Assembly: GCA_043228905.1 (NCBI GenBank)
Contig: JBHGNT010000009.1
Span: 3,410,001 to 3,474,000 of the forward strand
Origin: Azolla caroliniana
Taxonomy: Eukaryota; Plantae; Polypodiophyta
Reading direction: 5' to 3'
Length of the DNA: 64,000 nt
Positions 3,711-62,281 of this stretch are shown here, in pieces. Position numbers and translations under genes: made by a program. Positions within the stretch are counted from its first letter, which is position 1. Each line of letters starts with the position of its first letter. The notes under the pieces are model-generated. The model made no database searches and had not been told where the DNA came from. It saw only the letters and a program-made list of their open reading frames with translations.

Positions 3711-3732
3711 GGAAATTTAAAGAGGAAGAAGA

Positions 3733-5301
3733 ATGGAGGTAGCCAAAACCTTGTGCTCTGTGATGGGTGCGTGTGCCTTCGGGCTGAACATGGTTCCTCT
3801 GGCGGTGCGCAGGAAAGTGGATGAAGCCCTCCGGCGCCTCTGGGAGAACCTCTTCTCCACCGCTGATCCTTTCGCCTACATAGAAATCCCCTGCACCAGT
3901 AACAACCCGTTGCTGATGACAGAAAACAGCCATGGAACTCACCCTACCCCTGCTCCGCATTCCGGAAGCTCCGACTTGCCTAACCCTTTCTATGAGGATG
4001 TATCCCTTTACCTTAGTTCCCTTAACATCGAGCTCCAATCTAAACGAGTGAGTGTCTTCGGAAACCCTAAACCTAACCTTACTATTAACCCTAATCTGAG
4101 TACCAGCCCTAATTCTAATCCGCCTTATGTGTTTGGGCTCCCCCTCAACCAAACCCTAGTTGATACTTTTCATGGTGCCCAACTATGGTGGACACACACC
4201 TCTGACCCCTCTCAGGCTGGGCATATCACAAGCGGTGGTGGTCGTTCTGATGGTAATCCTCATAACGTTTTCATCCTCACCATGCTCAACTCCGACAAGC
4301 CTCGCCTCCTCCGCCCATATCTTTCTCTCATCTCCAAATACGCCCAAGACATGAGACGAAGGAACACTCTTCTAACTCTCCATACAAATACCCGACATGG
4401 ATCACATTGGACACCTTATGTCTTCAATCACCCCTCCACTTTTGAGAGTATCGCGCTGGAGGATGACTTGGCAGAACGCATCCAATCGGATCTCACTTCC
4501 TTCTCAGAATCAGAAGAGTTCTATCATAGTGTTGGTCGTGCTTGGAAGCGTGGGTACCTCCTTTATGGCCCCCCTGGTACAGGCAAGTCTAGCTTGATTG
4601 CTGCCATTGCGAATTTCATGCATTATGATGTGTACGACCTAGAGCTCACCAATGTGTATAGCAACACTGAGCTCAAACAACTCCTCATGCAAACCAAGAG
4701 GAAATCCATTATAGTGATTGAGGACATTGATTGTGCCATTGGAAATGAGCTCCTTAACGAAAACCAAGCTGAAGGGCATGATGCTAAAGCCTCTCATAGC
4801 AACCAGGAAGCTTTTCCTTCTAAATATGATGCTGGACTGGATGAAAGGGTTACGTTCACACACAAGCAGATGAATGGGTTGACTCTTTCTGGTTTATTAA
4901 ATTTTGCTGATGGCCTTCAGTCTTGCTTCGGTGAGGAAAGGATATTTATCTTCACTACCAATCACAAGGAGAGGTTAGATGGAGCCTTGCTGAGGTCGGG
5001 GCGCATGGATATGCACATTCTGTTATCATATTGTTCATTCTCTGCCTTCAAGAAGCTGGCCTTCAATTATTTGCGAATTCAAGAGCATGAACTTTTTGAT
5101 CAATTGGAAGAGGCTATGGAACCTGGTGTGATGATCACACCGGCATCTGTAGCAGAAATTTTGATAAGAAACCGAAAGGACCCCAAAATCGCTATTTCAC
5201 TTGTACTCGCTGCAGTCAAGACTGCAAAGATATTGAATTATCAAAGTGGAGACTTTCAGCATGGCATTGGAGAGGATGCCAAGTTGGATGCTCATAACTG
5301 A
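3733..5301 (+). CDS. Plant BCS1-clade AAA-ATPase (AATP1/ASD-like), intronless
   Basis: 522 aa; HPSTFESIAL, GRAWKRGYLLYGPPGTGKSS (Walker A), IIVIEDID (Walker B), TLSGLLNFADG, FTTNHKERLDGALLRSGRMD (SRH). Confidence 0.95.
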   Translation: MEVAKTLCSVMGACAFGLNMVPLAVRRKVDEALRRLWENLFSTADPFAYIEIPCTSNNPLLMTENSHGTHPTPAPHSGSSDLPNPFYEDVSLYLSSLNIELQSKRVSVFGNPKPNLTINPNLSTSPNSNPPYVFGLPLNQTLVDTFHGAQLWWTHTSDPSQAGHITSGGGRSDGNPHNVFILTMLNSDKPRLLRPYLSLISKYAQDMRRRNTLLTLHTNTRHGSHWTPYVFNHPSTFESIALEDDLAERIQSDLTSFSESEEFYHSVGRAWKRGYLLYGPPGTGKSSLIAAIANFMHYDVYDLELTNVYSNTELKQLLMQTKRKSIIVIEDIDCAIGNELLNENQAEGHDAKASHSNQEAFPSKYDAGLDERVTFTHKQMNGLTLSGLLNFADGLQSCFGEERIFIFTTNHKERLDGALLRSGRMDMHILLSYCSFSAFKKLAFNYLRIQEHELFDQLEEAMEPGVMITPASVAEILIRNRKDPKIAISLVLAAVKTAKILNYQSGDFQHGIGEDAKLDAHN

Positions 5302-9420: not shown

Positions 9421-11285
9421 TCAGTCTGCAAAACCCATTTGGCTCCAGACAGCATTTCGCACACGGCTCAAGTCTCGGCCCTTTAGGGTTCGACCTTGCC
9501 CTTCACAGACAGAGAAAGTTGTTCTCTGGCTTCGGGCATATTCCCTTGCGACAAGCTCATGTGGAGGGAGTCGTTCGTCGTCGTCGTCGTCATCCCCTTT
9601 ATCATTATCACTATCATCATTTATTATACCTGCCTTTCTGCCCTTTGCCTTTTTTGCTGCATCCACAAATAGATGAAAGAACACATGAATACTATATGAA
9701 ATATCTCTATAAATTGGTATTCTTTGCAGAATAATGAACTTCAATGAAAACATATACATATAATGGATCTTTTTGCCTACAGGAGAAAATCAACTACAGG
9801 AATTGCTGGAGCTAGCATGCCAACCTATTGTATACCCTACTATATGACACAGAAATCTATCCTAATTATATCTTTCTTTGGTTTAGTATTGTCTTACCAA
9901 TCTATCGCATACCCTAAATTGGCATTGAAATCTATCCTAATTATATCTTTCTTTTGTTTGGTATCGCTTGTCTTATAACTAGGGTACATGCGTACTATTT
10001 CACTTGACCTGAGCATCATTCCAGAATTCAAATAAAAAACATGTCATAATCTTACAATAACACTATCTTTGCTTTCCCTGAGTTTCATTAATGAATTCAA
10101 ATCAAAACATGTCATCTTAAGAACACACTATTTCATCTACCCAGAAAAACATGTCACTGCCTTAAAAGCATACTATTACACAGACCCAGAAAAACATGAC
10201 ATTATCTTACAAAACCATCTATTTATATTAACCAGATTTTCATTACTAAATTGAGATCTAACCATGTTTTTATCTTAACAGAATACTATCACCTCACCCT
10301 TTCTTATCTAGTGTTTCAATACTGAATTCAGATCAAAACACAGCTTTGCCTTAAAAGCCTACTAACTGTAAAATCAATGCGATTAGAAATTTCTTGAAGC
10401 ATGTGTCACATACAAAAAACATTCTTAACATTAGGATTCTCGATACTAACCCATGATCTTGGACCAATCTGGAACCTGAACTGGGGCAGACTGGCGCTCT
10501 GCATGCCTCCTAGGAGGTTCTTTGTTCATCAACCCTCCTGCTAGTTGAGGAATCATCCAAGAAGCAGAAGGACGAGAATTTCCGTGACCTGAAACTGAGA
10601 TCTCCGAAACCCTAGATAAAGGTGAAAGCCCAACCGAACTATTATTCAAGAATGCATCGGTGATCCCAAGGCTCTTGTCCCTTCTTCTCGTAGTTGATGA
10701 TCTTACAACCTCCACAGAAGCCACTTTATGTTTCCCATTCCCTATCCCAACCTCATCTAAATTTCCGTTAGCTACCTCACTAACCCCTGATTTCTTTGTC
10801 TCTTTTACCATCCTTTGCTTTCCATAGCCTAAGCCTAAGGAAAACTCATGGGCAGAAGCATTGATGTGCTTTCCTAGCAATAATTCTGAGTTTAGATCCT
10901 TAGAGTTATAAAGATGTTGGTGTGACCCTACCTCAGATAAATTCAAATGTTCCCAAGATCTTGTCTCCGCCGCCCATATGTCTTCTTCTTTGAACTCTTC
11001 GGGTTCATCATCCCCCATTACGTTTAGGTTTAGGTCTAGAGTTAGATCAAGATCAAGAAGTGAGGATTCAACAGGCGAAGAGGATAAAGAGAGCGCCTTG
11101 GGGGGGGTTGGAGGATGATTAGTTATTCCAAGAAGAACATTTGCTCGGTTACAACAAGGCCCTGAAGCGGAAGATGTGGCTGAGGCTGAGGCTGAGGTGG
11201 CTTTCTGGTCCCTGAGAATGCTTCCGAGACCCGCTGAAGTATTGGAGAAAGGTGCTTCTGAGCTCATCCCGCCTAGCCTCGCCAT
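9421..11285 (-). CDS. S40: Senescence regulator S40 / DUF584 family protein, 2 exons (11285-10451, 9656-9421), ~356 aa
   Basis: Exon 1 has EEDIW and [13 protein letters not shown]. Exon 2 has [10 protein letters not shown]...[31 protein letters not shown] donor at 10450 and CAG acceptor at 9657 join in frame (phase 1). Confidence 0.92.
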
Positions 11286-11328
11286 AGATCTCCTCTGGAG
11301 TTGATCGGATCAAAACTTGGCCAAACAC

Positions 11329-16100: not shown

Positions 16101-19100
16101 AGAGATCATACAATGTTTTAAACCCAGTTAACCAAAATTCTTGTGGTGGATAAACAATCCTATAAAGTTACGACATCTCAATGCAAAGAAGTTGATAATT
16201 GGATCAACTCAACACTATAGAGCCATATTCTAAATTATCATCATTGCCTCCACCTCTCAATTTGCCATAACCTATTTCACTAACGCTACTTTACCAAAAG
16301 AGGGGTCTATTGTTTTGAGAAGCCTAGCTTGAAAAACGATTAAAAAGCCTATATTTTGGGATGTAGAACTAGGTGCACTTTCATAAATTACAAATAATCA
16401 TGTGTGTGTGTGTTGGGGGGGGGGGGGAGTTCTTAAAATGACCATTTGGCATTTTTACCGTGATGTGCCATATACATAAAAGAAATCTATTCGCCCGCTT
16501 CAATATCCTCGCATAGTTGTTTTCATGTGTAATTTCAATGTAACATTCAATCATATATGGTAATTTCATTGTAACATTCAATCATATATGGTAATTTCTT
16601 CTCTCATATACTTCCCATCACATGTGGTAATGCATAAGCCATCAATATAATCTACAATTTACGTTTGTATACTTCAAATAGTTTTGACTATGGCAATATA
16701 TTTTTCGTTATTAACCTTTTAGAAAATATCCTAAATATCCCCTAAATACTAACAATATTGATGGTTCCAACCCATTATAATAGTTTGTCGTTAAAAAACA
16801 TGGTTAATTACAACAAAATAAGCTGCCAATGCTTACCCTTCATGATCATCATCTAATAGGAGACTATGCATTTGGTCAATGTGGAGGTTTTGCAAGCACT
16901 TTGCAAGTATGAATTAAGTTGGATTGTTTGGATTGAAAATCTTATTAGCTAGCTCAAAAGATTATAAACCAATAATTAAACCTTGTATGAGTTCACTTTA
17001 GTTGTCATGAATCAATGAACAAATTGTTTTAAGGCTATGATCAAGTGACAAAAAATTTTGAGAGAAGAAAGTGTATTGAATGCATGATGTTTATATAACA
17101 AAGGCCACAAGGCAGAGGGAAAATTCAACAAGGGAGATTTATGATGGGTGAAAATTAAAGCTAAAAGGTTATAAAAAATAATTAATCTTGTTAGAGTTTA
17201 CCTTACTTGTTATTAACCCATTAACAAACTACCAAAAGGATAGGAACAAGGGACAAAAAGTACTAGTCAGAAAATCAAGCATTACATTGACTACATGATT
17301 GGTACCATAAAGGGCACAACGAAATGAGAAGAATTGAGGAGAACAACACGATATTGAAATAGAAAACTAGACCTAGATTGAAAACTCCTTTATATAGTGT
17401 AACCTATTAACTATCTTGAATTTTACAGGAGACATTCAATATGGTTGTCAAAGTAGAAAACTAGACCCAAATTGGAAAACTCCTTGATTTAGTGTGGTGT
17501 ATTACAAAAAGCAATCACACCTAACAATTGTGCAACATGGGTAGCATAAATTTGTTATTACTAGAAATAATCCAATTTGCTTCCAAAATGGCCACCAAGT
17601 CGATCTCCTATGGAAACATCACATTTGCATCCAAATCTTGAGACTTTGGACATAACTATGGTGCTATTGAAATCACATGGAGAGAACCTCATGCTCTCCA
17701 CCTGTCCAAGTACTTCTTACACACTTATAAGTTATAGGATATTTTATTGCCATGGGAGTTCACGAAAAACACAACTGAAAGTTTTGCGCATTGCTCTAGT
17801 TCACAACATTGGTGCCAAGTGAGGGAATTTTAGGACTTATCGCACTTGATCTGATTACATTAATCGTTGTTGTGATGAGTAAGTGTGGGTCTCAAGTCAC
17901 TCCTAATCCTATCAACAGATGTTGGCAAATTAACAAGTAAGATTTAAACTTAACTTTTAAGACATAGACTAGAGACTTAAACTTAGTGAAGATTCTTTAA
18001 TAACTTAAATATTAACGTTAAACTACTAACACAGTAAACAAGGAAAGCAATGGAAGAACGCAACAAAGCACTCGATTGAGAAATATGGGACCAGTCTTCA
18101 AGAGTTACACCCAACCCATAACTTAATATTAAGACGAACATGATACCCCAACTTTAAAGACCACGTAATACTTCAAGATATAAAAACACTTACATCTCCA
18201 CTCCATGCAATTCGGGAAGCCTCTAAGGCTTATTAAGTGAAACTAAAATTGACACACACCTAATCACTACAACAATTAAGAAATATGTTTGTCTAAATTA
18301 AATAGATTAGAAACATATGACATAATAGATAATTGCTAATCAAAGAACATGTATATATGAATTTCCTAAAGGTCTTTTTCACATGAGAGCTCTAGCCCAT
18401 TTTATGCCCAACCGATGGTCGTGCCCTACTTACCTGCTGTCGTTGATGGTGGTGCAAATCCTCTTGAGGGATGTTTAGGGATTGCCGCTTCTGCCACAAT
18501 AGTTGTAGAAAAGTTGATTGTCTTTATCAGCCTACATGCTACAGCCAGCTCAGTTGCCGCAATCAACCTCCCAACGTCCTCCATCACCCCGGTCTTCCTC
18601 GATGCAACGACGAACCAAGAACAGTTATTGCGCTATCGCGAATAGTCTAATCAGGGCTCCCATGCAACTAACTCAGATATCCCACCTATTTTGGACAGCG
18701 TAGTAGAGCTTCTATTGAGAAAAGGACAATTCGAAAATATGTGTAAGATGGACACATTACATCTTCTTTCCCGGAATGTGCAAGGCCTGGGTGGTCATGC
18801 TTTTCGCAAATGTAAAGGACTCTTAGGCTCAAATTTAGGTACTACTAATGTAGGTACTATTGATATTTTTTTTCTACAAGAGCATCACATGTGCACGGAT
18901 AGGATTGGGAAGTATGGATCCATTTTACCAGGACGGTGGATTCATTTATGGTTTCTTGCCTTTGGCCCCACTGGCCTCTAGGCTGGATTATGCATTGCTC
19001 TTAAACACCATTTACAATCTATCATCATGTCAGTTGCTACTATTAATATGAATAAACATGCACAATTCCTTATTGTAAAAATAGGATCCTAGAAGGTTGA

Positions 19101-20369
19101 CCTTATGAATCTCTATGCTCCTAATTTTGCGTTAGAAAGGGTAGGTTTATGGCTATCTCTTTTTTAATTATGCGAGTTTAGCATATTGTTGGTTGGTGGG
19201 AGAACACGTTTGCGTTCACAAGTGGAAGGATTGCGCATTCCACTTATAGATTCCTTTTATAATCTTGCGATTTTAGACTATTTTCAAAAACTTGATACAC
19301 CAGTATCACATGTTTTAAATAGCATGTAAAAATTTGCTAGTTTTTTGAGATTTACAAGTTTCAAAATGATCATTTCTAAAATGGAATAGTTTTTCAATAA
19401 ATGTTTAAATTTTGATGGTTTGTAGATATGAAATGTAGTTAACTTAAAGAAAATCACAATGGTCAACTCAAGGCACAAGTTAAGGTTAATGGTTTCACCA
19501 TCTTGAGGAGATTAAGATTACATCTATTGTTAGACTTGAAAATGTTTTAACTATAAAAGGTAACATTGCAATCCTTAATGTCATCATCTATAAATTAATG
19601 CTCACTAACATCCATAAATTCACAACTCAAGAAATGTAGACAATATTCATAAACAATTTTGATAAATCCAAAACTCCTAAAATGTAGACGATATTCATAA
19701 ACTGTCAAACTTTAGATGTGAACATTAATATATCAATTTGAACATAACACATAGTTATCAGGGTATCTACAATGTTATCGTGTTCTTCCTTATAAGAATT
19801 CCCCTTCAAAATTTGTGACGTAATGGCATTTGCAAAGTTCAGTTACCATCAACAGAATTATTAATGGTTTTCTGAATCTAATAAATGAAGCACATGTTTA
19901 CCATAAGGTATTTTGTTGTGCAACATACATCTTTAAAAACCTCTTTTATTTGAAAAACAACAATAGTTTTAAACATGAACACGATATGTTGTATTGAGTT
20001 GATGTAAAAAATAGAGTTTTCATCATAATTCTATACAATATATTGAGTTCATGTTCAAAGTTTTTTTACCGAATTAAACAAAAATAATAAAAATTATAAA
20101 TTAAGCTTGAGTTCATAGAAAAACTAGATTTTTCATCACAATTCGATATAATGTATCGAGTTCATGTTTAAAGTAATTTTTTCAAATTTTTAAATTTTTT
20201 ATTTTCAATTTGTTTCAAAATTTTTTATTTTTTTTCAAATTTTTTGATTTATTTTTATTTTTTATGGAAAAAATAATAATTTAAAACATGAACTCGATAC
20301 ATTGTATCGACTTGTGATAAAAAGTCTGGTTTTTTCATCACCTATTAAAGCACAAAAAAACTTTCTAAG

Positions 20370-20610
20370 ACAGTGACGAAATTAGTACTAAGAGAGAAAT
20401 ATTAGTACTAAGAAGAATAGAAGGTGTAGAACACTTGAGAAAAGAAGAGAGAGAGAGAGTGAGAGTGAGAGAGGGACTAAGTGGGAATGATGATGACAGC
20501 GATATATTATGTGAGAAGAATATACAATGAAGGCTAAGAGGCTTAAGTCTGGCGTTGAACCGATTTGGTTCGAAATAATGCCTTGTGGCTCCTTTGATAG
20601 TGTTCTAAGG
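20370..20610 (-). mobile_element. Chromovirus LTR fragment related to the LTRs at 46524/51842
   Basis: GGCTTAAGTCTGGCGTTGAACCGATTTGGTTCGAAATAATGCCTTG is near-identical to the reverse complement of 46715-46760; TTAGTACTAA repeats and the (GA)n tract are also shared. Confidence 0.85.
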
Positions 20611-20624
20611 CTTGCTAAAGTAGT

Positions 20625-20985
20625 TGAAAATGAAAATATTCTTTGTATTACAATGTATGGTTTAATGGTTAGGAACTTGACCCATGCAATGTTAGGTCAT
20701 GGGTTCAAGTCTCACCTTACCATGACATGAAGAAAACTAACATTTTTAGATGAAAAAATCACGCTTTTAAACATGAACTCGATACGCCGTATCGAGTTCA
20801 TGTAAAAAAGCAGCTTTTTTACATGATCGAGTTCATGTTTAAAAGCATGATTTTTTCGTGCAAAAGTATTAGTTTTGTTTCATGTCATGGTAAGGTAGGA
20901 CTCGAACCCATGACCTTACGCTCATGGGTCCAACTCCTAACCATTAGACCATATATTGTAACACAAGATAAAATCATTTTTAGAA
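20625..20985. repeat. ~350-bp inverted repeat with convergent tRNA-like heads
   Basis: Left arm ATGGTTTAATGGTTAGG...GGTCATGGGTTCAAGTC...CCTTACCATGACATG is mirrored at 20880-20960; a third head lies at ~21315-21390 (-). Confidence 0.85.
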
Positions 20986-21264
20986 ATATTATCAACACTA
21001 AGAATACTATATTAGCTTTTTAACATGAACTCGATACGCCGTATCGAGTTCATGTAAAAACGTTAGCTTTTCAACATGAACTCGATACGGCGTATCGAGT
21101 TCATGTTTAAAAGCGTGATTTGTTACATGAACTCGATACGGCGTATCGAGTTCATGTTTAAAAGCGTGATTTGTTACATGAACTCGATACGCCGTATCGA
21201 GTTCATGTAACAACTCGATACGGCGTATCGAGTTCATGTAAGATACGGCGTATCGAGTTCATGT
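20771..21264. repeat. Array of the 33-bp palindrome ACATGAACTCGATACG(C/G)CGTATCGAGTTCATGT
   Basis: Full copies at 20771, 21023, 21074, 21125 and 21176 (51-bp period in the cluster); truncated copies at ~21212 and ~21242; decayed copies at 19972-20320 and 21484-21640. Confidence 0.95.
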
Positions 21265-22661
21265 TTAAAAGCGTGATTTGTTCATTTAAAAAAATTTAGC
21301 TATATTGAAATCATGATATGGTAGGACTTGAACCCATGACCTAATACTTCATGGGTCTAACTCTTGACCACTAGACCACTAGACCATACTTCATATTTCA
21401 TGGGTCTAACTCTTGAAGTTTCTAAAATTATAAATAAAAATTCGAAAAAAAAATTGAAACAAATTAGAAAAAAATACTTTAAGCATGAACTCAATACATT
21501 ATATTGAATTGTGATGACAATTATGGTTTTCTAGATGAACTCAAGCACAAATTATTATTATTATTATTTTTTAAATCTAGTAAAACAAACTTTGAGATTA
21601 TTATATCGAATTGTGATGAAAATTATGGTTTTTTGGATGAACTCAGATGACAAGGAAACTTGCAAGAACTCAAGATGGGGATATTAATAGCTACACATGT
21701 AGATGGCCATGACCTAGGGTACCAATTCGGCATTGGTAAAGTTTTGGACGTGATGATGCATTAAACCTTTGTAATACATCTATGATTAACATTAATGAGG
21801 TGGATATCATTATGTATGACTTTACACACACAAAATTTGGATGTTTAAGGACAACAACGATATACATAATAAAAGAGATATTAGCAAGTCTAGAAGATAT
21901 CTCAAATTGAAGGGGAAGAAGATTTACTGCACACAATTTGGTGAAGACAATGATTTGATTGGTACATTGGAAAATGAGGAGGAAGAGTCACGATTGTATA
22001 TTATCTATAGTAGTGATTGTTATGAAAAGAATGATGATAGTCATGCAAATAACTCCCAAATGTATTTGTTGTACAACTATATGTAACAAATTTAGACAAC
22101 ATTTTATCGAATGGAATAAAAATGTTCATTGTTTTGAAGTATTGTACTTTCAATTTCCTTAAGATCTAAAAACTTATTAGCTGTCATTTTTCCTTAAAAA
22201 TCCACAAGTTACTTTTCATATTTGACCCAAATTTGGCATTTTTCAATTTTACCAAATGGTGAAAATTTCAACTTTTTCATCAAGTTTTCGAGAACATGTG
22301 ATACTAGTATCAAGATGTTTTGTGAAATGGCAAAAAAACCCCAAAATCAAACGGAATATTCCTTATCCTTCCACTTATGCGCAATCCTTCCACTTGTGAA
22401 CGCGAACGTGTTGGAGGCAACTTTAATATGATTGAGGATGTTGTTGATAGAATGGGAGGTATAAGCACTACAATTTCAGGATGGGAAGCTAAGTGTTGTG
22501 ACTACTTTTGTTTTGCCTATGGTTTGCTTGACTTATGGAAGGTGCATTCATTTTCACGTATACAAGAATCCCTTGAGTTTCTAGATCAGATGGGAGTATG
22601 GTTGCCACAAATTTGTCTTGACTAGATAGATTTTATGCTAGTAGAGTTTTTTGGAGGGGGG

Positions 22662-25600
22662 TGTAGAGACTCTTGAGTAGGAGAGAGAGAGAGGGAGAGA
22701 GAGAGAGGGAGAGGGAGAGAGGGAGAGAACACAAGAAATGGAAATGAGATTACATTATGAGGAAATAAGTTTACAAAGAGTAGGCTAAGGCTAAAGATTG
22801 GTGTTGAATCGAATGAGTTGTGATGAATGAATAGACACCTATTTATAGGTCCTTATGGAGTATTCTAGAATATTTTAGAATATTTATGATATTTATGATA
22901 TTTATTATAATCATGGAATATCTTAGAATGTTCTAGAACACTCTAAATATCTTGTAATAACTAATAATATAGTTATTATAACTATACATCATATATGTTA
23001 TTATAATGGTTAAAGGTCTAACATATATATAAAGACGTCTTGGGCTCGAATCCTTGTAAAGCAAAAATGTATGTATGTATGACATTATCCCCCTTTTTCG
23101 ATGACAAGTTCCACGAGTCGAAAGACAAGATTTCGGACTTGGCTTATGGGGATATTTGTTGTGAAACACGACAACCATTTTGGAGGCATTAGCAAGATTC
23201 TCGAGAGGTTCCCATGTTTGATCATTAGGTGTATAACCTGACCAGTCAACCAAATAATACAGTTTGTTGTGAACGATCTTGGAGTCGAGAATGATAGCAA
23301 CTTCATATTCGGAGCCATCTGAAACTTTGATTGGAGGTGGGGGAGATGTAAGAAGGCCTGGAATAGAGTTGGTTGTGTACGACTCCAAAAGTGAAACATG
23401 GAAGACCGGGTGAAGATGCATATGAGGGGGAAGATCAAGGTGAAATGCCACATCATTGATCTTACCAGATATCACATATGGGCCAAAACGTTGATAATCC
23501 AATTTGCAGCAAGGTCAGGTTGTTTTAATGCGACCTTGTAAAAGCCATACTCAATCTCCCACTTGAAACGTAGTTGATGAATCATGTCGATGATGGTCGT
23601 CAACCTTCTTTTGAGTGTTTTGAGCATCACATAAATGGTGCAAAAGAATATCTTGAACTTCTTGGAGTCGGGTGAGCCGATCTTCAGTAGCTGGGTTTGT
23701 CAGGAGTTTGAAGATGTTCAAGCATAGTACAATGAGGATGATACCCATTGTTTGCAAAAAATGGGGAATATCCAGTAGAAGAATGTTCTGAGTTGTTGTA
23801 TGCAAATTCCGCCAAATGTAATAGATCAACCCAATCATCTTGTTGATAGTTGACAAAACAACAAAGATATTGTTCTACTGTTTGGTTGGTGCTCTCACTC
23901 TGCCCGTTAGTTTCTGGATGGTAGCCAGAAGAGAGTTTGCAAGAAGTATGTAAGAGTTTGAACATGTGCCGCCAAATTTTTGAGATGAATTGGGGACCCT
24001 AATCACTAATAATATCATCGGGAAGACCATGATGCCAAAACACCTCTCGCATGAGTAACTCGACTGTCTCTTGGCTCGTAATGGCCTTTATGCAAGGAAG
24101 AAAATGTGCCAACTTGGTAAAACGATCTACTACCGTGAGAATAGAATCAAAACCCTTGGAAGGGGGTAGATCTGTAATGAAGTCCAATGAAATAGATTTC
24201 CATGAACTCTCAAGAATAGGCATTGGTTGTAATAAGCCATATGGATGATGTCAAGGTTTTTTGGATCGGCAACATGTATCACAACTACGAACATAATCCG
24301 TAACAAAATGGCGAAGTCGTGACCACCAATACCTTCGAGAAATTAACGCCAAAGTCTTGTGGATGCCGAAATGTCCAAGCATTGCTGTGTCATGATATTG
24401 TTGCAAGACTTGGAGTCGAGAAGGACCATCAGGCACATATAAGAGATTTTGTCAAAAAAGTAAACCATCATGCCAATTGAACTGGTTGTAGTCTTGACGA
24501 GGATTTTGATATTGTGAACAAGAAGCTCGATCTGGGATAATATGGTTCAAAATGTCTTGGGCGAATTCATCAGCCTCAATATGATCCCGAATGGAGTCCA
24601 GAAGACTTGAATCCCCGGGTGTGTCTATAGCATGAAATGCCATTAGTCGTAGACGGTCAGGACCCAAGAGGATTTGCTTCTGACTTTCAAATGTGGCCTC
24701 TCCTAGTTGAAGTTCCATATACGAACGTCGAGATAAAGCATCCGCTTTTCCTTGTTGCATCCCAGGGCGATATAGAATTATGAAATCAAAACAAGTTAAG
24801 AATTGTACCCAACGAGCTTGTCGACGACTCATGACTCGAGCACTTTGGAAGTACGTTAGATTTTTGTGATCATTATAGACAATGATTTGTTGAGACGAAC
24901 CCTCCAAAAAATGATGCCATTGTTGAAAAGAATCCACAATGGCAAGAAGCTCTTTATCATGAATCTCATTGTTGATTTCTGCAACTTCGAATTTCCGTGA
25001 ATGAAAAGCCACATGGTGCAGTTGGCCATCATTGCTAGTCTAGGATAATACGTTGTCGTCAAGATCCGTCACTAGGCGCGGATCGCGAGGCGGAACCGTC
25101 GAGGTTCTGGACTGGAAGGACTCGAAGTTTGCACAAGCTTTGGCGGGAAAGGAATTAAGATAGATTGAAAGAGAGAGAGATTGAGATAAGATAGAACGCT
25201 TGAATTTAGATTGAGAGAGAGATTAAGAACTCTTGACTTTAGATTTCAAGAACAAGGTATATCATCAAAAAGATAACGAATTTTTATCTTAATATTAATT
25301 TTGATTTAAAGTACAAAGCTTTCTTTTTTTTCCCAGAAAAAATCCCCCATTGATCTTTTTCATTCCCTCTTTTATAGATGCCCTCATGCATTTGAGGGTT
25401 AAAGACATGTATAAAATGCATGTTTGCCATTTGGCGCCCATGTATTACATGTGGTGCATGATAACCACATCACTCATTTTAGCTCTCATGTATGAGAATT
25501 TACATGTAAAGTTACAATGATAAAAATATTATTTCAAGAAATTGTCTTTGCTTAGTGGTAAGCCTATAGACTCTCAACTTGGAGGTGCAATGTTCAAATC

Positions 25601-26717
25601 CATACTTGCACTCCTTGTGTGTGTATATATATGTGTATACATATATTTATTCATTTATTTATATATCTATCCGGTCGCCGGTTACCGGATGACGCCAGTT
25701 ACAGGTGGCCGTCGATCGTCGGATGTTGGATACCGATACCGTCGGATCACCGGTTACCGTCTAGTTCTGTTTTGGTTGGCCAAAACCTTTACGAGTGGCT
25801 AGGCCAGTTCAATAGTAAAGTGCATCTATTCAAGATCTTCGTCTTTTGTACTAAGATATTAAACTTACTTAGAATTAGTATATTCACTATTATTATTTTA
25901 TATGATTGACACTTGATTTCCTAAGTCTTATGTGATTTTCACACCATTGCCGAAATCTTCACAACAACGCTTCCTAGTGCGAAGTCGGATGCATTAGCTT
26001 CGAGTATAAAGCGCTTCAATGGATCAACATGCATCAAAATTGGTGCGGATGTAAATGCTTGCTTTAATCCTTAAAATGCAGAGTTTGCATTTATACTCCA
26101 CACAAATGGTCGATTCTTTTGTGTCAGTTGAGTGAGGGGCAATACGATTTTTGAATAATCTTTTATGAACATGCGATAAAAATTTGTGAACCCCAAAAAA
26201 CATTGTACATCTCGCATAGACTAGTGTTTGCCAATTCAAAAATATTTGAATCTTTGCTGGATCCATAGAGATGCCATGTGAAGAGACTATGTACCCCAAA
26301 AGTTCCACTTGACGCTGGTTGAAACTGCACTTCTCCAATTTTGCACAGAGACCATATTCACGCAACCGTTGCAAAGCTTGTCGAACGTGTATATCATGAT
26401 CCTCTTGAGTTTTTGAGTAGATCAAGATATCATGTTGTCGACTGTTTGAACCGAATGAGTTGTGATGAATGAATAGACACATATTTATAGGTCCTTATGG
26501 AGTATTCTAGAATGTTCTAGAATATTTATGATATTTAATATAATCATGGAATATCCTAGAATGTTCTAGAACACTCTAAATATCTTGTAATAACTAATAA
26601 TATATTTATTATAACTATACATCATATATGTTATTATAATGGTTAAAGGTTTAACATATAAACCAAGACGTCTTGGGCTCGAATCCTTGTAAGGCCAAAA
26701 TGTATGTCTTCATGACA
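22662..26717 (-). mobile_element. Degenerate, internally deleted Ty3/Gypsy chromovirus (same clade as the 46.5-52.3 kb element)
   Basis: 3' LTR 22662-23084 with PPT GGGGGATAA; truncated 5' LTR 26446-26717; TSD GGGGG (22657-22661 and 26718-26722); RT, RNase H, integrase and chromodomain (YEVAIILDSK..YYLVDWSGY..TWEP) fragments; gag and protease absent. Confidence 0.9.
25054..25966 (-). mobile_element. Solo LTR (~913 bp) inserted in the RNase H region of the chromovirus
   Basis: TG...CA ends; interrupts host codons DASDFALGS|VLS; imperfect 4-bp flank ACGT/ACGC; TATA and CT-rich tract on the minus strand. Confidence 0.7.
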
Positions 26718-32274: not shown

Positions 32275-35200
32275 TTAAAAAATGGCCGACTCGGGTCTCC
32301 AATCTGTCTTCTGCACCGCGATAAGTGCTTCTGTTGATTTAGAGAAAGTCATCCGAACATCCCAATGGAGCGATTCAATCAAGGCTTGCACTTCACTCAT
32401 GCTATCCACCGATTCACGTACAATCAACCATCCACCGGGCCTCAATAAACGATCCATTTCAGCAATGACAACCTTAACATTGCACCTGCAAAAAGATAGG
32501 CTATCTATACTTAGCTTTTCTACAAGATGGGTTTACCTCTTTTACATTAAATGCAAGTCAACCTCTTTTACCTCTTCGTCAACCTGCTGAATAGATGGTC
32601 TGCATGAAGAAGATCGTAAGTACGAGGATATGAGCTGAAAGATTCACACCAATCATGATAGATTCCAAAGAGCCCTCGATCAAATATCACAGGCAATGTC
32701 TTCGGTGCATCAAACAGTACTACATTCATCACCCAGACTGGTTGGGACACAAGAGCAGCTGCGAATCTGTATATCAATAGAGAAATAAATTGTGTAAGCT
32801 TTGGTAAAGCTTATCAAACCATGCACTTCATTGTCCAAGGTAGCATTCAAAATGTGTTTACCCTCCATAAACTGCCCTCGTATCCATCACATTCCTAATA
32901 TTCTGCCATTCAATACCAAGACCTTGAAGGTACGACTTTTTTACAATACGCTCCCAACGTTCTGTGTCCGATTGGAAATCGGATACCCCATTCTGCCTTG
33001 CAGCCAGCCATGCTGGTGCTTCCAAAAGTCGTTGAGGCCACTTTTGAGGCCATTCAGCACCGTGGGCATTTGACTCGGCAGGTATCTTATGAAGGCAAGC
33101 AGTCATTGGAGTATACCTATGTCAACATGTACCACAAATCACCAATCATAAGCAAATATTGCTGAACCATGAAGAGGAAACTAGTTGCTTGAATTGGCAA
33201 GAACGTATACCATGCATCATCTGGTTTATCATCATCTTCACACATGGGAGGAAAATCTTTTTCCCTTTTCTCATAGCAATCATTGGTGGTAGGCTTCTGA
33301 AAAATAGCAGCTCCAATCCCTGTGGAAGGATCGACAAACTTTGCAACGAGTCTCCAGCACATAGCAATTGTCATTGCTCTTGTGTCTGCAATGATTGCAT
33401 CCAAAAGAATTTAAGAGTCTCATTCTAAGCCATAAAAAATGTAGAATCGTGCTTAATGCGCTTTTGAGAGTGTGACCTTTCCAGATCTGGACGTCTTCCT
33501 CATCATCCCAATAAACTGGCGTGGCCGACCAGACGAAATATCCACCAGGCCTCAAAACACGGTTTAGCTCCAAAAGGAGTTTGCCACCTATAGAAATGAT
33601 TATCAAAAGAAAGGCTTAATCCAGAGATATTGCAAGTCTATCCACACAAAGAGAAGAGAATGATCCAAGAAGGAATTTGGCAAGCTACCATATCCTTGGG
33701 CTCAACAAACGTCATGCAGTGTAATTCAAATTGATACCAAGAACGTGCCATACATCAACTTACAACATTATTGACGGTATCAAATGTAGCATACATACAC
33801 ATCACATCAATTCAAGACATTCATGCTACTTAATATGTTGCAGAATACATTGCAGAATTAAATTGCCGTAGACATACCTTCAATATGCCAGGGCACTCTA
33901 CACCGTGCACAATGGACAGCATCATAAACATTGCTTGGAAATACAAGTCGTTGGGTACCCATAACAGAAGATATCGCGGGAATTCCCCGTTCAAGAGCAA
34001 ACTGAACTTGTGCTTCGTGTTCATCTTTTGGAGCAAATGACATGGTAAGCACATCCCTATCAAACATATATCCACCGAAACTTGCAACTCCACATCCGAC
34101 ATCCAAAAGAACACGAGTGCGCTTTCCCCATCTGATCTTTGAAAATTTCTGGTTTCAAGGAAAATTTGTTGTGTGAAACAGCAGAAATAAACATGAGCTT
34201 GCAAACTCTAATCACAACGTCCATCTTAACAGAATGGGATAAACTATATGAGTATTATCCTTAAAACACTTTAAATTATGCGACTATCAAAGACTAAATT
34301 TTTGTCTATAGCTTTCTTTCAATCAATTTCAAACAGATGCTGGCATTTTTTGTATGAATAGATCTATGAAATATCGCACCTCCTCCACATAGTCAATGTA
34401 ATGGAGGGCACCATGTTTAAATTGAGTTCCTCCTCCAGGAAAAATGAGTCGATCATTGGACTTCTTCACCCACTGCTGATCTTTCTTATATGATACTAGT
34501 CCAGTATGAGGAACATTTTTATACCAAACCTGAATTGGAGAACAAGGCATTCATAATGGCTGTTAGTGAGTTGGACAATGAATAATATAATGAAATGTAA
34601 ATCACGTTACATCTTTGAGATATGAAGCCCATACAGCAAATAGAGTATATGCAGGTATTAATCGCAAAACACATCCAGTAATTCAGTTAGTGTGCAGCAT
34701 AAAGAAAAACCTCATTTAGATCACCTTACATTTTGAAGTAAGAATCAGATCACTGAGTCCAGCATGAAATGCATTACAACAATATATTAGCAATAAGTTT
34801 GGATATGCACCTCATTTCTACTGAGAGGCCACGTTATTGGTGTACGATAACCTTCCGGAAGAGGAACCAAGCATTCTGGTGCTGGATCAGGGCAATGTCT
34901 CTCCCGATGCTCATAATGCTTAGTACTGTGGAGCGCTTTTATTGCCTTTGTATTATCCAGACAAGGAATGTAGTCAACTCCAGCATTTGTATCACACAAG
35001 GTCCATTCAATCTTCTGCTTACTCGAGGTTTTCAAACTTTCGTCTGCATCATTGACACTATTATCCTCTGAACCATAGTCTGAGGTCTCCTTAGAGTTTC
35101 TCTTCTTTTGTGTTACATCAGTATCATCATCATACTTTGGAGATTCCGAAGTTTCTTTCGCTTTTATTATCAGTTCATCCTCATCTTTTTGAGACACGGG

Positions 35201-35647
35201 TTTTGACTCAGCTTCTGGTTCCAAATCTTCTGATACTTCTTCCTCTCTTGATATTTTGGCAGGATTTTGCTTCTCTAGGAAAGAGTCAGGTTCTGGTTCC
35301 GGTTCTGATTCTGATTCCTCAGATACTTCCTCCTCTTTCGACGCTTTGGAAGGCTTTGTTTCCTCGGGTTCATTCTTTGGGGTTTCCTCTGGTTTCTCCT
35401 CGGATTCCAATGTCGGGTCACCAGCACTCTCTTCAAAACTCTCATTAATATCGTTGTTACGGACCTTAATCTCAGGCTTTCCTTCTACTTCCACATCAAT
35501 CTCATTGCTTTCAGAGAATTGAGACTCAGAGGGAGAGCTCAATACCCATGCACCAATTAGACATAATCCAACAAAGACCACAGCTGTAACCATAACATAA
35601 AATGTTGGCACGCGCTTTTCTTGTCGGAAATTCTTCCCAGAGGCCAT
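32275..35647 (-). CDS. PMT: Putative pectin / SAM-dependent methyltransferase (DUF248, PMT24-27-like), type II membrane protein, 8 coding exons, ~734 aa
   Basis: Exons 35647-34811, 34529-34380, 34148-33878, 33587-33477, 33385-33211, 33116-32862, 32766-32572, 32485-32275; all GT-AG and phase-compatible (2205 nt). N-terminal TM and acidic stem; [56 protein letters not shown]. Confidence 0.95.
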
Positions 35648-38035
35648 GTTGATTAAATGCTTCTATGTGGCACAAGTCAATTAACTGTAGCATAAAAAAA
35701 AACAATATCATCACACGATCCAGAACACATATTTGAGTACAGAATTCAAGAGCTAAAGAATATGTGAGCTCATCTTGCCAGAGAGAAATGAGAACTACAG
35801 ACTCTTTTGTGCGTATGTGTGTATTATATAAACACACAGACACACACAATAGGTTGCAACTATGGTGAACAAAACCACCATAAGTTGCTAGACCATTGCC
35901 TTGTATACAATATTACAAGTACAAATAATATTCCCAGATGTAGCTGCATCCAGGCTTTCAGAGCCAAGTTAGCTTTAAGAGCATTTCTGCATTAATCTTC
36001 GTTCAGGATGAGGAAAGCAAGCTTGCGCCAAGAAAATTCTAGATATCATGCAGATCTGCAAATTCCTGGCCGATACAATGATATACAGTACTTCTAGGAG
36101 ACAGAGGAGCTAAGTCAATACTTTATGCATTTAGCATTAAATGCAAGCTTGCGCCAGCAAAATTCTAGATATCATGCAGATCTGCAAATTCATGGCAGAT
36201 ACAATGATATACAGTACATCTGGAGAACATAAGAACAAAGTCGTTACTTTATACATTTAGCTTCAAATGCAAGGAGCTTGTCTAAAGAAGTGATTCCTAT
36301 CTCTGGGACAAGTAGCTTTCCAAAGAGATAACGTTCGTCATCACAGCAAAGAATGAAAGAAAACAGCATATGATTTTTTTAATGACAAATAACGAGGCAC
36401 TAGACATAACTTACAAGGGGATCCATGCAGGCTTTCAAAACTAAGTCAAATAAGCATAATTCTTTTCATTAAACTTCAGTATAAGAAGTTAAAGTTGGTC
36501 CATAGAACTTCTGAATATCCTGCAGATCTACAAATTTCTGCAACAGCTGAATATATTTTGAATACAAGAAATGTGTACAACGCATTACTTCAAGCTTTCG
36601 GCATTGAGGTAAGGTGCATGAGAACAAAGGTTATCCGAGAACATCTGAATAGCAAGTAGATCTACAAGTTTCGGCAATGAATACACTCGCAGCACAATGC
36701 GTATGTAAAGCTTCCAGATCTGGTGTAAGGTGATGTGAGTGCCAGACATCCTAAAGAGACAAAAGATGATCTAAAAATAGGATTAGCTAAGCATAATTCT
36801 TCATTGAGTTTCTCTACATGAGAACAAAGCAGGTCCGAGAACATTATGCCATGTTTAGATCTACAAATTTCAGGAACACAATTGCATCAAAGTCCAATAA
36901 ATACACTCAATGCACAAGAGAGGTGCACCAGGCATTGCCTTTAGCTGTGAACTTCAAAGAATGGTAGCTCATAGTACGGAAGGTGGCAAAGGCTTTTCCA
37001 AGCTACCTGAGAAGACTAAAAGAGAGACCAAACTAGAACCAACTAAGAACAATTCTTCATATAGTTTTAATGCACAAAACAAAGCATGTTTAAGAGACTT
37101 CTGGACATCATGTCTAGATCTACTCGGAACAGAAGAAAGGCGTATGAGTCATTGCTTTAATATTTCACATTCAAAGGAATGTAGCTCAAAGTACGTGAAA
37201 ATGCAGAATCGTTTCCATGAAACCTGAGAGTGCTATAGGGGATCTAATGAGAACAGGTTGCTATGAGCACGTGAGAGTACCAAATATTTTCCACGAAACG
37301 TGAGAAGGCTAAACATGTATAGGTGGCTCGACGCCATACATCAGAGCACCAAAGGTAATTCCTCGGAAATCCAAGAAAGGTAAAGAAGATCTGATGCGAA
37401 TGAAGAAAGAAACAGGTGACCAAAGGAAGAGGAAAGAAAGGCTACGCAGTAGTTGCACGGACAAGATCGCATTTTTCCAATGAAGAAAGCGCATGAGTTA
37501 TTACGGCAAGCACTGCTCAAAGAAAGAAAGCGCGTACAAGAGACAAATGCGATGTCTCTCCAGCTATGGTGATGCTTTGCCTGATCGAAAGGGATATGAG
37601 AAGCAAAAATACCAGCACAGAAAATCGAAGTGCAAGAAGTTAACGTCACGCCACGGTAGCGTCCCAATGTGTGAGAAATGCAAGAAGAAAATAGGAAGGA
37701 AGGAAGGAGAGAATGTGATGTGACAGGGTGTGGGAGTACACAAGCAGGAGAAGGAGGAGGAGAAGCAGAAGTCGCCATAGCTAGCCAAGGCGGTGGAGAA
37801 ATGCGTACCTTCAGATTGCAGGGGTCGAGAGGATCTGCACGAGAGTGTGGTGGGAAGAAGCTCAAAGGCGGGAAGAAGAAGAAGAAGAAGGCACCATTGG
37901 CGAGAAGGTCTGGCCTAGAAATGCTGGCCCCCAGAGTGGGAAGAGACTCTGTGCTTGAGATGAGATCGGGATCTGAGTGAGAAATGCAGAGATGGAGATG
38001 GTGATGGAGATAGAGATGGAGAAGCTCCCCCACCT
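35648..38035 (-). other. Putative PMT 5' UTR with a ~2.1-kb intron (~37808-35686) and a pyrimidine-rich first exon
   Basis: Minus strand GAAG|GTACG donor near 37808, CTACAG| acceptor near 35686, CT-rich leader at 37810-38035. Confidence 0.5.
36017..36275. repeat. ~125-bp tandem duplication in the putative PMT leader intron
   Basis: GCAAGCTTGCGCCA..AAAATTCTAGATATCATGCAGATCTGCAAATTC at 36017 and 36142. Confidence 0.85.
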
Positions 38036-45276: not shown

Positions 45277-46813
45277 TGTAAAGAATCGAGTATGATTCTA
45301 TGCAGCGGAATAGGTTAAAGATGTGTGTGAAAGAGGAGAGAGGAGAGACAGAAGATAGGTTGGAAGATGAAATACTCAAGATGTATATTAACAAGAAGTA
45401 GAATGACACTTACAAAGTAGGAGGAGGGTGCTTTATATAAAGTCACCCTCTCACTAAACCACTCATGCACTCTCCAGAAACTTTGGGAGGGGGGAATCTC
45501 ATTAACTATGTATCATAGAGTGTAACTCCTATTGTTGGGGGCAAGGCCGTCAATGCGGAAGAGTAGACAACGTCTGTGATGGTGAAGAATCTACGTATGC
45601 GAGTTAACACTAGATAAGCACAGAGAGAGAGAGAGAGATAGGCACAAAGAAATAGGATTTTATTTCTCAATAGCAACAACTACAAGAATTACAACCAGCA
45701 GCTACTAACGGGTTACAAAGTCACTTTATATAGTGACTGTCCTAGGGCAACTGCCCTTTGTGCTATTTACAAAAATAGCCCAAACTTGGGCTGTCCAAGG
45801 GGACAGTGTGAATACGGCCATTATACACTCGTATTCGACATTCCCCCGTAATGGGCGTATACATGGGTTATCTAAAGAATTACAGGTATATATACAAGGT
45901 TTATCGGACAGATCGGTTTTGTCAGAGTCGGCAAGATCCGAAGACAGAAGACCGAACCAGTTGGGTCGGAAGAGCTGAAGCCGATCCTCAAAGAACCGAT
46001 GTTGGTGGTCCGAAACCGTCTTGTGTTGTGTGTCCAACTTTAACCGGACCGATTTTTCGTTACGCCCATTTGGTGCCGAAGGGGTCGGAAACGATCCGCC
46101 GAAAGACACTTGGTCATTCTATTTGCGACATTATTGGTTGTGGATATCTTCTCTAGACTGATTTTCCTTGAAATGACGCAGTCTCGAACGAAGTGATATC
46201 GAACGTCGATATGCTTGGAGGCGTTGTGGTGAACTGGGTTTTTTGACAAAGCAACAACACCCTGACTGTCGCTGTAGACAACTGGAGCCGAGTCGGAGTC
46301 GACCTGTCAGAATGTGTGCGCCAGCCGGCCGAGCCATAAAGCTTCTTTTGCCGCGTCGGACGCAGCTACATATTCCGCTTCGGTCGTTGAGGTGGCTGTG
46401 CACTCCTGAAGTTTCGACTTCCACGAGATTGCTCCATTGCTGAATTTGAAACAATATCCGGCTGTTGATTTCCGACTGTTCACACAACCGACGAAGTTTG
46501 AGTCGGTGTAACCGACTACGCATTGTCATAACTAGACTCGAACCCATAACCTTTTGTTACACGGGTCGAGACTTTACCATTAGGTTATGAATTGTAATTT
46601 GAAGGATATTATTTTCATTTAGGTTTTATTAGGAAATTGATGTATATTCCAGATTTCTCTGGAACATTCTAGAAACTTCAGGAGTATTCCTGAAGACACT
46701 ATAAAAGGAGGCGCAAGGCATTAGTTCGAACCAAATCGGTTCAACGCCAGTCTTAAGCCTTCTAACCACTGTTGTATATCTTCCTTCATATAATACATAT
46801 ATCTTTCGCATCA

Positions 46814-46859
<46 letters not shown>

Positions 46860-47095
46860 ACTCATTCCTTCTCTCAAAGTTCGACACCTCTCATAGTACT
46901 AATCCTTCTCTGTCTTAGTACTATTCCCCGACAATAGTACTAATCCTTCTTTTAGTACTAATTCCTTCTCTGCCTTAATAGAGTTCCTGACAGTTTGAAC
47001 CGATTTCTGTCGGTGCCTGTCTGGTTTTTTCTCTCCCTCTTCCTTCTGTCTCCCTCCTTTCCTATTAGTCTCTTATTCCCCTTTTCCTTCATCCC

Positions 47096-48265
47096 ATGGC
47101 CACCGTTAGCGCTGAAGAGTATCAATCCGTTTTCTCGGAATTTCAATGCTTGAAAGAGAAGTTTCATGCTTTGGAACAAGAAAATCAACGCTTGTTGGGG
47201 GATCTTCAGCAAATTTCCTTAGAAAAGCAGCAAACGCAACAACAGCATGGGGAACTTGCGTTACGCGTGCAACAACTCGAAGCAACCATCGTAGCAATGC
47301 AACAACAAGGGCACGGAGCACAAGGGATTCATAAAGAACCCAAGATTGGCCTTCCCACGAAGTTCGATGGAACGCGATCGCAGTTTAGAGGGTTTCTTAA
47401 CCAGGTACGGTTAGTTATTCAAATGCATCCGTCCCGATATCCCACCGATGCATCACGAGTGGGTTTAGTAGGCACGTTGTTAAATGGCTCAGCATTAGCA
47501 TGGTTCGCTCCGCTACTAGAAAAGGAATCTCCAGTACTAAATAATTTTGAAGAATTCATAAGTGAGTTTAAAGCATGTTTTGGAGATACTGACAGCATAA
47601 GGACTGCAATCAATAAAATCCGGCGATTACGCCAAGGTGACCGTCCAGCCTCCGCATATGCTGCAGATTTCCGCCTACTCGCCGCCGATATCCCCTGGGA
47701 TGATCAAGCATTGATGGAACAGTTCCGCTATGGTCTACGCAACGATGTCAAGGATTTACTCTTGACTTTCCCTGAAGAGCCAAAATCATTAACAGAAGCA
47801 ATCAGTCGAGCGGTCAGATGTGACAACCGCCTCTTCGAGCGACGTTCGGAACGACAATTTCAGATGCCGAGGGCAAGATCCGAGCCTACCTATGCCTCAG
47901 TGGTAGCGAAACCTTTTCAAAGGGAGTCACATAATGCGCCTCCAGTAAGTACTCCAACTCCAATGGAAATTGACACTACACGTCGTCGTGGGCCGCTATC
48001 GGAGGAGGAAAAGCAACGACGCCGAACAAACCGATTATGCCTTTATTGCGGTGGACCAGGGCATATCGCGATAAACTGTCCCCATAGACCAAGAAGGCAG
48101 GTAAACCAAGTCGTTGTTAGTTCTGACTATACTAAACCCGAGTCTATTTCAGTAGGAATCTCTGATAGTCCTCATAGTCATAATAGTCCTAATAGTACTA
48201 ATAGTCCGAATCTCGCAAACAAATTTGATATCCTTAGCCAATTAGAAGAAGAGTTAAACGACTAA
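47096..48265 (+). CDS. gag: Gag: coiled-coil N-terminus, PEG10/LDOC1-like capsid, CCHC zinc knuckle
   Basis: 389 aa; EPKIGLPTKFDGTRSQFRGFLNQ, LRQGDRPASAYAADF, PMEID, CLYCGGPGHIAINC. Confidence 0.95.
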   Translation: MATVSAEEYQSVFSEFQCLKEKFHALEQENQRLLGDLQQISLEKQQTQQQHGELALRVQQLEATIVAMQQQGHGAQGIHKEPKIGLPTKFDGTRSQFRGFLNQVRLVIQMHPSRYPTDASRVGLVGTLLNGSALAWFAPLLEKESPVLNNFEEFISEFKACFGDTDSIRTAINKIRRLRQGDRPASAYAADFRLLAADIPWDDQALMEQFRYGLRNDVKDLLLTFPEEPKSLTEAISRAVRCDNRLFERRSERQFQMPRARSEPTYASVVAKPFQRESHNAPPVSTPTPMEIDTTRRRGPLSEEEKQRRRTNRLCLYCGGPGHIAINCPHRPRRQVNQVVVSSDYTKPESISVGISDSPHSHNSPNSTNSPNLANKFDILSQLEEELND

Positions 48266-51200: not shown

Positions 51201-51849
51201 CCGGTGGTGTGTCCTTGAAACCCCAGAAGTGTCCACAAATCCGTGCGCGGAGGATCGTTTGGAGCGGTTACGCAAGATACAAGCGGATTTATCTACTCAA
51301 CTCCAGCAAGCTCAACAATCACACAAGGACTACGCAGATCGTCATCGACTTCCATCCAGTTTTAACATTGGAGATCGGGTGTGGCTGCTACGACGACACA
51401 TCAAGACTACTCGCCCATGTGAGAAGTTGGATTATCGGCGATTAGGTCCTTTCCGTATTATCGGGAAGATTAATGATGTCGCTTTTCGTCTCGAGCTACC
51501 TCCGCAACTTCGGATACATCCGGTGTTTCATAGTTCTCTCCTCGAACCCTATCACGAGAGCACTATCCCAGGACGTACTATACAACCACCACCTCCTATC
51601 GAGCTCGAAGATGGACCTGAGTATGAGGTCGCTGCCATCCTCGATTCCAAGATTGTTCGCAACAAGCTCTACTATCTAGTCGATTGGCTAGGATATAGTC
51701 CCAGCGAGCGTACTTGGGAACCGATCGAGAATGTGACCAATGCTCGTGCTCTTCTAGAAGACTTCCATCGACGATATCCCGAGAAACCGGGTCCTCAATC
51801 CAAAACGACTCGTGGAACTCGTCGTTTTAAAGGGGGGATAGTGTCATAA
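48260..51849 (+). CDS. pol: Pol (PR-RT-RNase H-integrase-chromodomain) in the -1 frame relative to gag
   Basis: LLDSGA, YLDD, DASDFALG, H..H..CDTC, ISDRGPQF, GPF, chromodomain YEVAAILDSK..YYLVDWLGY...TWEP. The frame is open upstream of the called TTG at 48292; the stop lies inside the 3' LTR. Confidence 0.95.
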
Positions 51850-52131
51850 CTAGACTCGAACCCATAACCTTTTGTTACACGGGTCGAGACTTTACCATTA
51901 GGTTATGAATTGTAATTTGAAGGATATTATTTTCATTTAGGTTTTATTAGGAAATTGATGTATATTCCAGATTTCTCTGGAACATTCTAGAAACTTCAGG
52001 AGTATTCCTGAAGACACTATAAAAGGAGGCGCAAGGCATTAGTTCGAACCAAATCGGTTCAACGCCAGTCTTAAGCCTTCTAACCACTGTTGTATATCTT
52101 CCTTCATATAATACATATATCTTTCGCATCA

Positions 52132-52181
<50 letters not shown>

Positions 52182-57967: not shown

Positions 57968-58140
57968 GATGAGAGGTTCTCACCGGGTCTGCAACATCCG
58001 GTTCTCACCGGGTCTTCCTTGCCGGGTACTCGTCATCCGGTTCTCACCGGGTCTGCATCATCCGGTTCTTGGTACTCCACATTTGGTTCTCACCGGGTCT
58101 TCCTTGCCGGGTACTCCACATCCGATTCTCACCGGGTCTT
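57968..58140. repeat. CCGGTTCTCACCGGGTCT sub-repeats in Copia B U3 (also at 63928-64000)
   Basis: About five interspersed copies visible. Confidence 0.85.
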
Positions 58141-62200: not shown

Positions 62201-62281
62201 ATCTGGGAGGGAACCGAGCAGGAGTTGTGCTAGTACCTCATCGGCAAGAGGTACTTCCAATGATGTTGCCTGGTGGATCAG

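Follow-up and report, generated by a model that had tools for sequence, protein, structure and literature searches.

Why should a transposon with no intact gene carry an array of long, perfect palindromes in its interior? The question arises in the window, a 64,000-nucleotide stretch of Azolla caroliniana DNA (contig JBHGNT010000009.1, positions 3,410,001 to 3,474,000). From sequence comparison, the palindromes are probably the retained core of the element and candidate parS-like sites for a ParB-methyltransferase supplied in trans. They are regarded as candidate docking sites because of their co-location, their conservation, their phasing and their retention in gene-less families.

An earlier note on this DNA described a 33-bp palindrome with 16-bp arms around a single central base, and five perfect 33-mers were found. 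The first (20771..20803; central base C within a GCC centre) is followed by a fold-back junction and a half dyad (20798..20838). The remaining four (21023-21055, 21074-21106, 21125-21157 and 21176-21208, together 21023..21208) have a 51-bp period and the centres C, G, G and C. They end in a second fold-back junction with two truncated dyads (21209..21264), centred at 21223 (G, left arm of 11 bp) and 21248 (G, left arm of 6 bp). The centre order C, C, G, G, C, G, G, the truncated copies at the end of the array and the palindromic linker at 20804-20820 are all as the note had them. Its regular 51-bp period with 18-bp linkers holds for three intervals only; the full series of spacings is 252, 51, 51, 51, 31 and 25, the first unit lying apart from the rest (252 bp centre to centre). 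Five decayed versions of the same dyad with ATT, AAT or GTT centres had been overlooked. Four of them (19973..20318; centres 19989, 20038, 20151 and 20302) are the same or almost so across the five closest copies, and the fifth (21483..21515; ATT, centre 21499) lies within an inverted duplicate of the left arm.

In the 523-Mb genome there are 177 exact copies of the 33-mer and 2273 of its 23-bp core, against 0 for the reversed control, so the palindrome is not a product of chance. The note had asked whether the 33-mer is confined to one family of terminal inverted repeats (TIRs); all 50 listed places, of the 177, lie within family members. The array is unlikely to be an assembly artefact, since differently built arrays occur at dozens of loci and two centres are linked by short-read contigs. 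Short-read contig X12, from another run, covers 21135-21205 with 1 difference. The palindrome region folds very stably (z -21.8); a reading as an RNA gene or miRNA was rejected because none of the 33 Rfam matches at E<=1 attains the gathering score.

The palindromes lie in a non-autonomous, Sola1-like DNA transposon of 3210 bp with AACAC termini (19203..22412). Its 36-bp TIRs, 19203..19238 on the forward and 22377..22412 on the reverse strand, are 97% identical, and it is flanked by the target-site duplication (TSD) GGAG at 19199..19202 and 22413..22416 (both forward). The family TIRs, the TSD, the multicopy state (649 TIR matches genome-wide) and the want of an intact gene mark it as a non-autonomous derivative. 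Among the first two sets of elements fetched, the TSD measures at least 4 bp in 38 of 38 paired elements, 5 bp in one of these. The termini AACAC..GTGTT occur in the element's own autonomous family, A, and in two sister families, B and C; Sola1-1_Ec32, in a single comparison, has AACCG..CGGTT. The 4-bp TSD and the termini suggest a Sola1-like element, and the motifs of the transposase are presumably like those of Sola1. The features of Sola elements were taken from the accessible portions of PMC3627910, PMC4455052 and PMC5751038.

Within the element, a captured LTR-retrotransposon fragment (20365..20726), which 43 of 62 gene-less copies share, is 75% identical to the LTRs at 46696-46923 and 52014-52245. 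Inverted copies of its 3' piece lie at about 20883-20982 and 21311-21378. Part of this piece (20658-20725, with the same inverted recurrences) makes up, together with dyads, a higher-order repeat of ~330 bp in larger copies, for example L012 and L019. We take the piece to be tRNA-like, with motifs resembling A and B boxes; no tRNA match to it was found in Rfam. A remnant of the transposase C-terminus (21639..21940, forward) is 52-59% identical to the family A transposase. The host of the insertion is a decayed LINE reading frame (18740..19198, forward), presumably of an endonuclease, which is split by the element and resumes after 22416. A join of 19198 to 22413, with the element absent, is found in contigs of three of four runs and comes from an allele that lacks the insertion or from a further LINE copy.

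The rest of the window holds further mobile DNA and host genes. An LTR retrotransposon at 46524-52314, which we assume to be of Ty3 type with a chromodomain, has LTRs that are 99% identical and frames for gag (398 aa) and for pol (1203 aa) that look intact, and a decayed relative lies at about 22804-26717. Further LTR pairs with Copia-like frames, 45533-45840/56503-56808 and within 57528-64000 (97% and 94%), suggest nested retrotransposons, and GC-rich tandem repeats of 39-54 bp are seen inside Copia-like LTR elements. The host genes presumably encode a PPR protein (1154-2788, reverse), an AAA ATPase (3721-5301, forward), a senescence-regulator-like protein (9421-11309, reverse) and a putative methyltransferase, of which one exon was noted (34787-35662, reverse).

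Family A was first found as two palindrome-bearing loci of 8.6-9.2 kb with the same TIR as the window element. It encodes a DDE-type transposase in an ORF of 921-927 aa (DUF7869, E 2e-51) and, divergently, a second gene that appears to be spliced (its exons are modelled on splice signals) and joins a ParB-like part to a bacterial-type DNA methyltransferase part (N6_N4_Mtase). There are at least 131 transposase matches and at least 128 ParB-exon matches at 98-100% identity. The 19 TIR-paired copies (22 were fetched) carry 2-16 cores with a 51-bp period between both genes, and 18 of the 19 have a 4-bp TSD. Families B and C of the same genome have transposases of ~50% identity and TIRs that are unrelated past AACAC; a different dyad, AATCCGATGCA-N-TGCATCGGATT, occupies the same position as in family A. 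Old copies with the left end of the window element (L070, L071, L072 and L082) contain methyltransferase or ParB remnants, about 76% identical at the DNA level to L139-L142, which suggests a parent family, now decayed, that was not family A. Homologs of the ParB-methyltransferase are present in 'Gb_' gene models and in Adiantum (P0033, P0037, P0040, P0041, P0043 and P0045), so the cassette extends past this genus.

The dyads keep close company with the ParB gene. Among 80 metagenome loci and 8 loci of the genome itself, 43 had enough upstream sequence to be scored, and in 38 of these a dyad lies upstream of the ParB exon. The density is 215 sites in 44.5 kb upstream of that exon versus 15 in 274 kb elsewhere. 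These counts overstate independence, as the copies are related, some share flanks and the metagenome loci resemble one campaign. Common flanks are seen in L025, L026 and L038 and again in L040 and L042, yet the arrays differ; such sharing is segmental duplication or assembly redundancy.

The consensus CGATRC-N3-GYATCG is constant across related families, while TIRs, spacers and synonymous sites have diverged. In 29 distinct sites the CGAT-R-C positions are kept in 55-58 of 58 cases, and the central three bases are variable and often asymmetric; because they vary freely, the C or G at the centre is a mere orientation marker. At locus L134 the 23-mer is identical to the family A core, with synonymous sites of ParB saturated (pS 0.82) and different spacers. 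The sites are also phased on the helix. Of the 73 locus-spacing values up to 65 bp, which come from 34 related loci and do not amount to 73 independent tests, 71 fall at 30-33, 39-43, 49-54 or 63 bp, that is, in windows of 3, 4, 5 or 6 whole helical turns, where about 55% would be expected by chance.

Non-autonomous elements normally keep just what the transposase needs at the ends. The internal dyad was nevertheless found with at most one mismatch in its core in 62 of 62 TIR-paired gene-less copies of the window's family, and with the core intact in 58; 25 of the 62 had been seeded by the terminal pattern irrespective of the array. Loci with no usable TIR pair (15 of 40 TIR-seeded loci, 5 of 20 sister loci, and L011, L031 and L034) were left unscored, and several of them show no dyad. 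As an independent replication, seeding with the B/C TIR (n=20) gave 15 short paired elements, all with GATGCA-type dyads, and 13 of these form one family of 3.3-4.0 kb with 5-12 dyads each. L210 and L225 consist of both ends and a 600-bp dyad block of family C alone, a layout which implies two deletions that removed both genes and spared the dyad block. Three separate gene-less families hold on to their cognate sites.

In autonomous copies the array is placed between two divergent genes, as regulatory sequence would be, and it might bind a host transcription or chromatin factor, or yield hairpin small RNAs, that the element exploits. That the site is kept in copies without any gene to express, the confinement of the listed 33-mers to the transposon family and the lack of an Rfam match at gathering score make this very unlikely.

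The candidate binder is the protein of the second gene. An AlphaFold model of its ParB region has a pLDDT of 80.6, and every listed Foldseek match with E<=1e-3 is a ParB or Noc protein (7bnr, E 1.4e-5). The model has the ParB/Srx N-terminal fold, superposing on 7bm8 with a VIA Z of 11.1 and an rmsd of 2.0 over 97 aligned residues. For the putative DNA-binding helical region, the alignment to the ParB-parS complex 4umk reaches only Z 5.1, with an rmsd of 4.5 over 98 residues. The CTP-binding arginine patch of ParB has the sequence GxxRxxA; its place is taken by GSHSAEAR or a near variant in 36 of 36 rows, which makes a CTP clamp doubtful. The methyltransferase part belongs to PF01555 (N6_N4_Mtase, E about 3e-8). 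DIPY is found in 56 of 61 relatives and DLFSG in 46 of 48, and the DIPY exon precedes the DLFSG exon, so that motif IV comes before motif I, an order which we take to indicate the beta class of DNA amino-methyltransferases. DIPY is conserved yet non-canonical when compared with DPPY or (D/N/S)PP(Y/F). A PDB sequence search with one methyltransferase exon as the query returned only 2zie (E 0.54). A search with alignment A1 for longer fused homologs found none, but it covered only 1328-3790 aa and is uninformative. With dN/dS of about 0.02-0.05 for both parts against L127 and L129, where dS is measurable, the ParB and methyltransferase parts are both under strong purifying selection.

The earlier note had proposed a binding site for the mobilising protein. 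The direction was right, but the likely binder is an accessory protein, the ParB-methyltransferase, and not the transposase. Retention and helical phasing would suit any cis element for a transposition protein, and the dyads could form an internal enhancer that the transposase itself binds in building a transpososome. The transposase is disfavoured as the binder because the one autonomous copy checked has no half-site in its terminal 300 bp and because the TIRs of A and of B/C are unrelated beyond AACAC despite a common dyad consensus. The array, moreover, adjoins a gene whose fold belongs to known palindrome binders, and a transposase-bound enhancer is therefore unlikely. Under the preferred reading, binding by the ParB-methyltransferase, one dimer would bind each dyad, the phased sites would bring several dimers together along the same side of the helix, and the protein of the autonomous relatives would act in trans on the gene-less copy.

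The alternation of C and G at the centres had been attributed to template switching or to site-specific inversion. Two fold-back junctions, at 20798-20826 and at 21171-21213 (21-bp arms), are private to the window copy, and four sister copies whose left 1560 bp show only 3-7 mismatches have different numbers of units and different centres; both observations bear out template switching. Spacers of the commonest types are found either way round, and the centres that flank the commonest spacer are independent of each other (20/10/10/4, Fisher p=1.0). The background of C-G transversions is 64 in 61549 sites, as against a 70:70 split at the centre. Because any two arms match each other in both direct and inverted orientation, unequal exchange between them and template switching would flip spacers and centres and alter the number of units. 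The alternation fits such a by-product of exchange in the arms, and a fixed crossover is unsupported.

Site-specific inversion, nicking or resolution, for which the commonness of centres and spacers in both orientations might speak, is scarcely credible. The breakpoints are scattered, the junctions varying in position (spacings 25, 29, 31, 36, 42, 62 and 66), and ordinary exchange in the arms would by itself leave the centres independent. Pfam recognised DUF7869 and N6_N4_Mtase and no other family in the six autonomous ORF pieces scanned, and no recombinase family among them; neither a cognate recombinase nor a fixed crossover point was found.

The same mobility might be all there is to the array: a functionless palindrome could maintain and multiply itself by cruciform- or hairpin-driven template switching, as the very stable folding, the private junctions and the fast change of number and orientation would allow. 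This explanation is largely refuted, and its probability is very small. Conservation is position-specific around a free and often non-palindromic centre, the spacing follows whole turns, an identical 23-mer persists despite synonymous saturation, and the dyad block survives double deletions.

The centres of the dyads have also turned over in time. In older gene-less copies every dyad has an ATT or AAT centre, and so it is at the ParB-gene loci L138 and L202. In the young clade that includes the window element, the central GCC/GGC dyads have the core of the active family A (209 of 289 intact), and the outer ATT dyads are decayed (29 of 321 intact). In trees rooted on the autonomous relatives the ATT-only copies form a basal grade. 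Constraining nine of them to one clade was rejected (p-AU 0.0066), in a test of 26 rows only, with long-branch outgroups and a group chosen after the tree had been seen. We infer that GCC was gained by short conversion, with family A as the candidate donor, although the GCC units may simply be younger. Copy-by-copy decay of GCC was rejected as the origin of the ATT centres, the old copies being uniformly ATT/AAT with few intermediates and the L138 and L202 arrays perfect ATT; ancient fixation of ATT through deamination is possible.

Whether the enzyme writes on the element is a separate matter. In gene-less copies, deamination of CpG is 3.8-4.2% in the dyads versus 8.5% in the arms; younger array units could account for the difference. 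In autonomous copies the core CpG gives 1/580 versus 101/8695 (p=0.02) and the inner CpG no difference (p=0.69), which, with units that are not independent, is suggestive only of protection of the core CpG. The enzyme may write 6mA or 4mC on the element and so counter host silencing or license transposition, a weaker proposition than binding, with chances somewhat short of even. More tentative still, and rather improbable as a whole, is a scheme in which the ParB-methyltransferase loads on the phased array, the 6mA or 4mC that it deposits licenses the element, gene-less parasites rely on the protein as a second trans factor, and their sites have been updated from ATT to GCC to match the active master family. 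With DIPY conserved but non-canonical and the dyad CpGs still subject to deamination, the protein may write a mark or may only bind. The outcome is a defined site (CGATRC-N3-GYATCG with a 51-bp period) and a candidate for its binder, in a genome whose >2000 sites would allow 6mA or 4mC to be read directly from long-read kinetics. If true, writing would place a sequence-targeted writer of a mark other than 5mC in a land plant, and VANC would be joined by a second strategy against silencing.

VANC, the anti-silencing protein of VANDAL elements, co-evolves with its motifs, as described in the consulted part of PMC5735166. The system differs from that of Azolla in being a MULE with another protein, non-palindromic motifs of 8-9 bp and removal of 5mC; its binding was shown experimentally, whereas the sites described here are candidates from sequence. 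ParB-HTH-fused methyltransferases are on record in chlorophytes (PMC4738411, in part). The bacterial ParB/parS and Noc/NBS systems (7bm8, 6t1f, 7ol9, 4umk) share with the Azolla protein the ParB/Srx N-terminal fold followed by a helical region, and with its array the clustering of palindromic sites. They differ in that the Azolla protein has another sequence in place of the arginine patch and a methyltransferase fused to its ParB part, that no ParA was found and that a role in partition is implausible. By analogy, the candidate system would work like ParB/parS but is not classed as a partition system.

The nearest known parallels come from algae. Plavaka PAG3 of Bostrychia likewise has a ParB-like accessory gene beside tandem inverted-repeat arrays, proposed as its own binding sites (bioRxiv 10.1101/2025.02.11.637652). 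It is an EnSpm/Plavaka element in which a 2OG oxygenase is the fusion partner of ParB and the methylase has a gene of its own, and the available text of the report contains no test of phasing or retention. Sola1-1_Ec32 of the brown alga Ectocarpus has the same gene pair, a ParB-like and N4C/N6A methyltransferase gene on the opposite strand, along with a 4-bp TSD and termini that start with AAC (AACCG); the protein was proposed to bind and modify its own element (PMC12477816). It is unlike the Azolla element in its size of 21.5 kb and its TIR of 282 bp. The main text of that paper has 'palindrom' 0 times, and the accessible portion describes neither a site nor gene-less derivatives. In the literature searched, which lay outside subscription journals and the supplements to bioRxiv preprints, no report of non-autonomous elements retaining such arrays turned up. 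For Ectocarpus, a Sola1 element with this gene pair has been published (PMC12477816), and what is new here is the evidence from gene-less copies for retention, phasing and site turnover. Gene-less families that keep and amplify an internal site provide a natural experiment for selection in cis, where the algal papers only proposed it.
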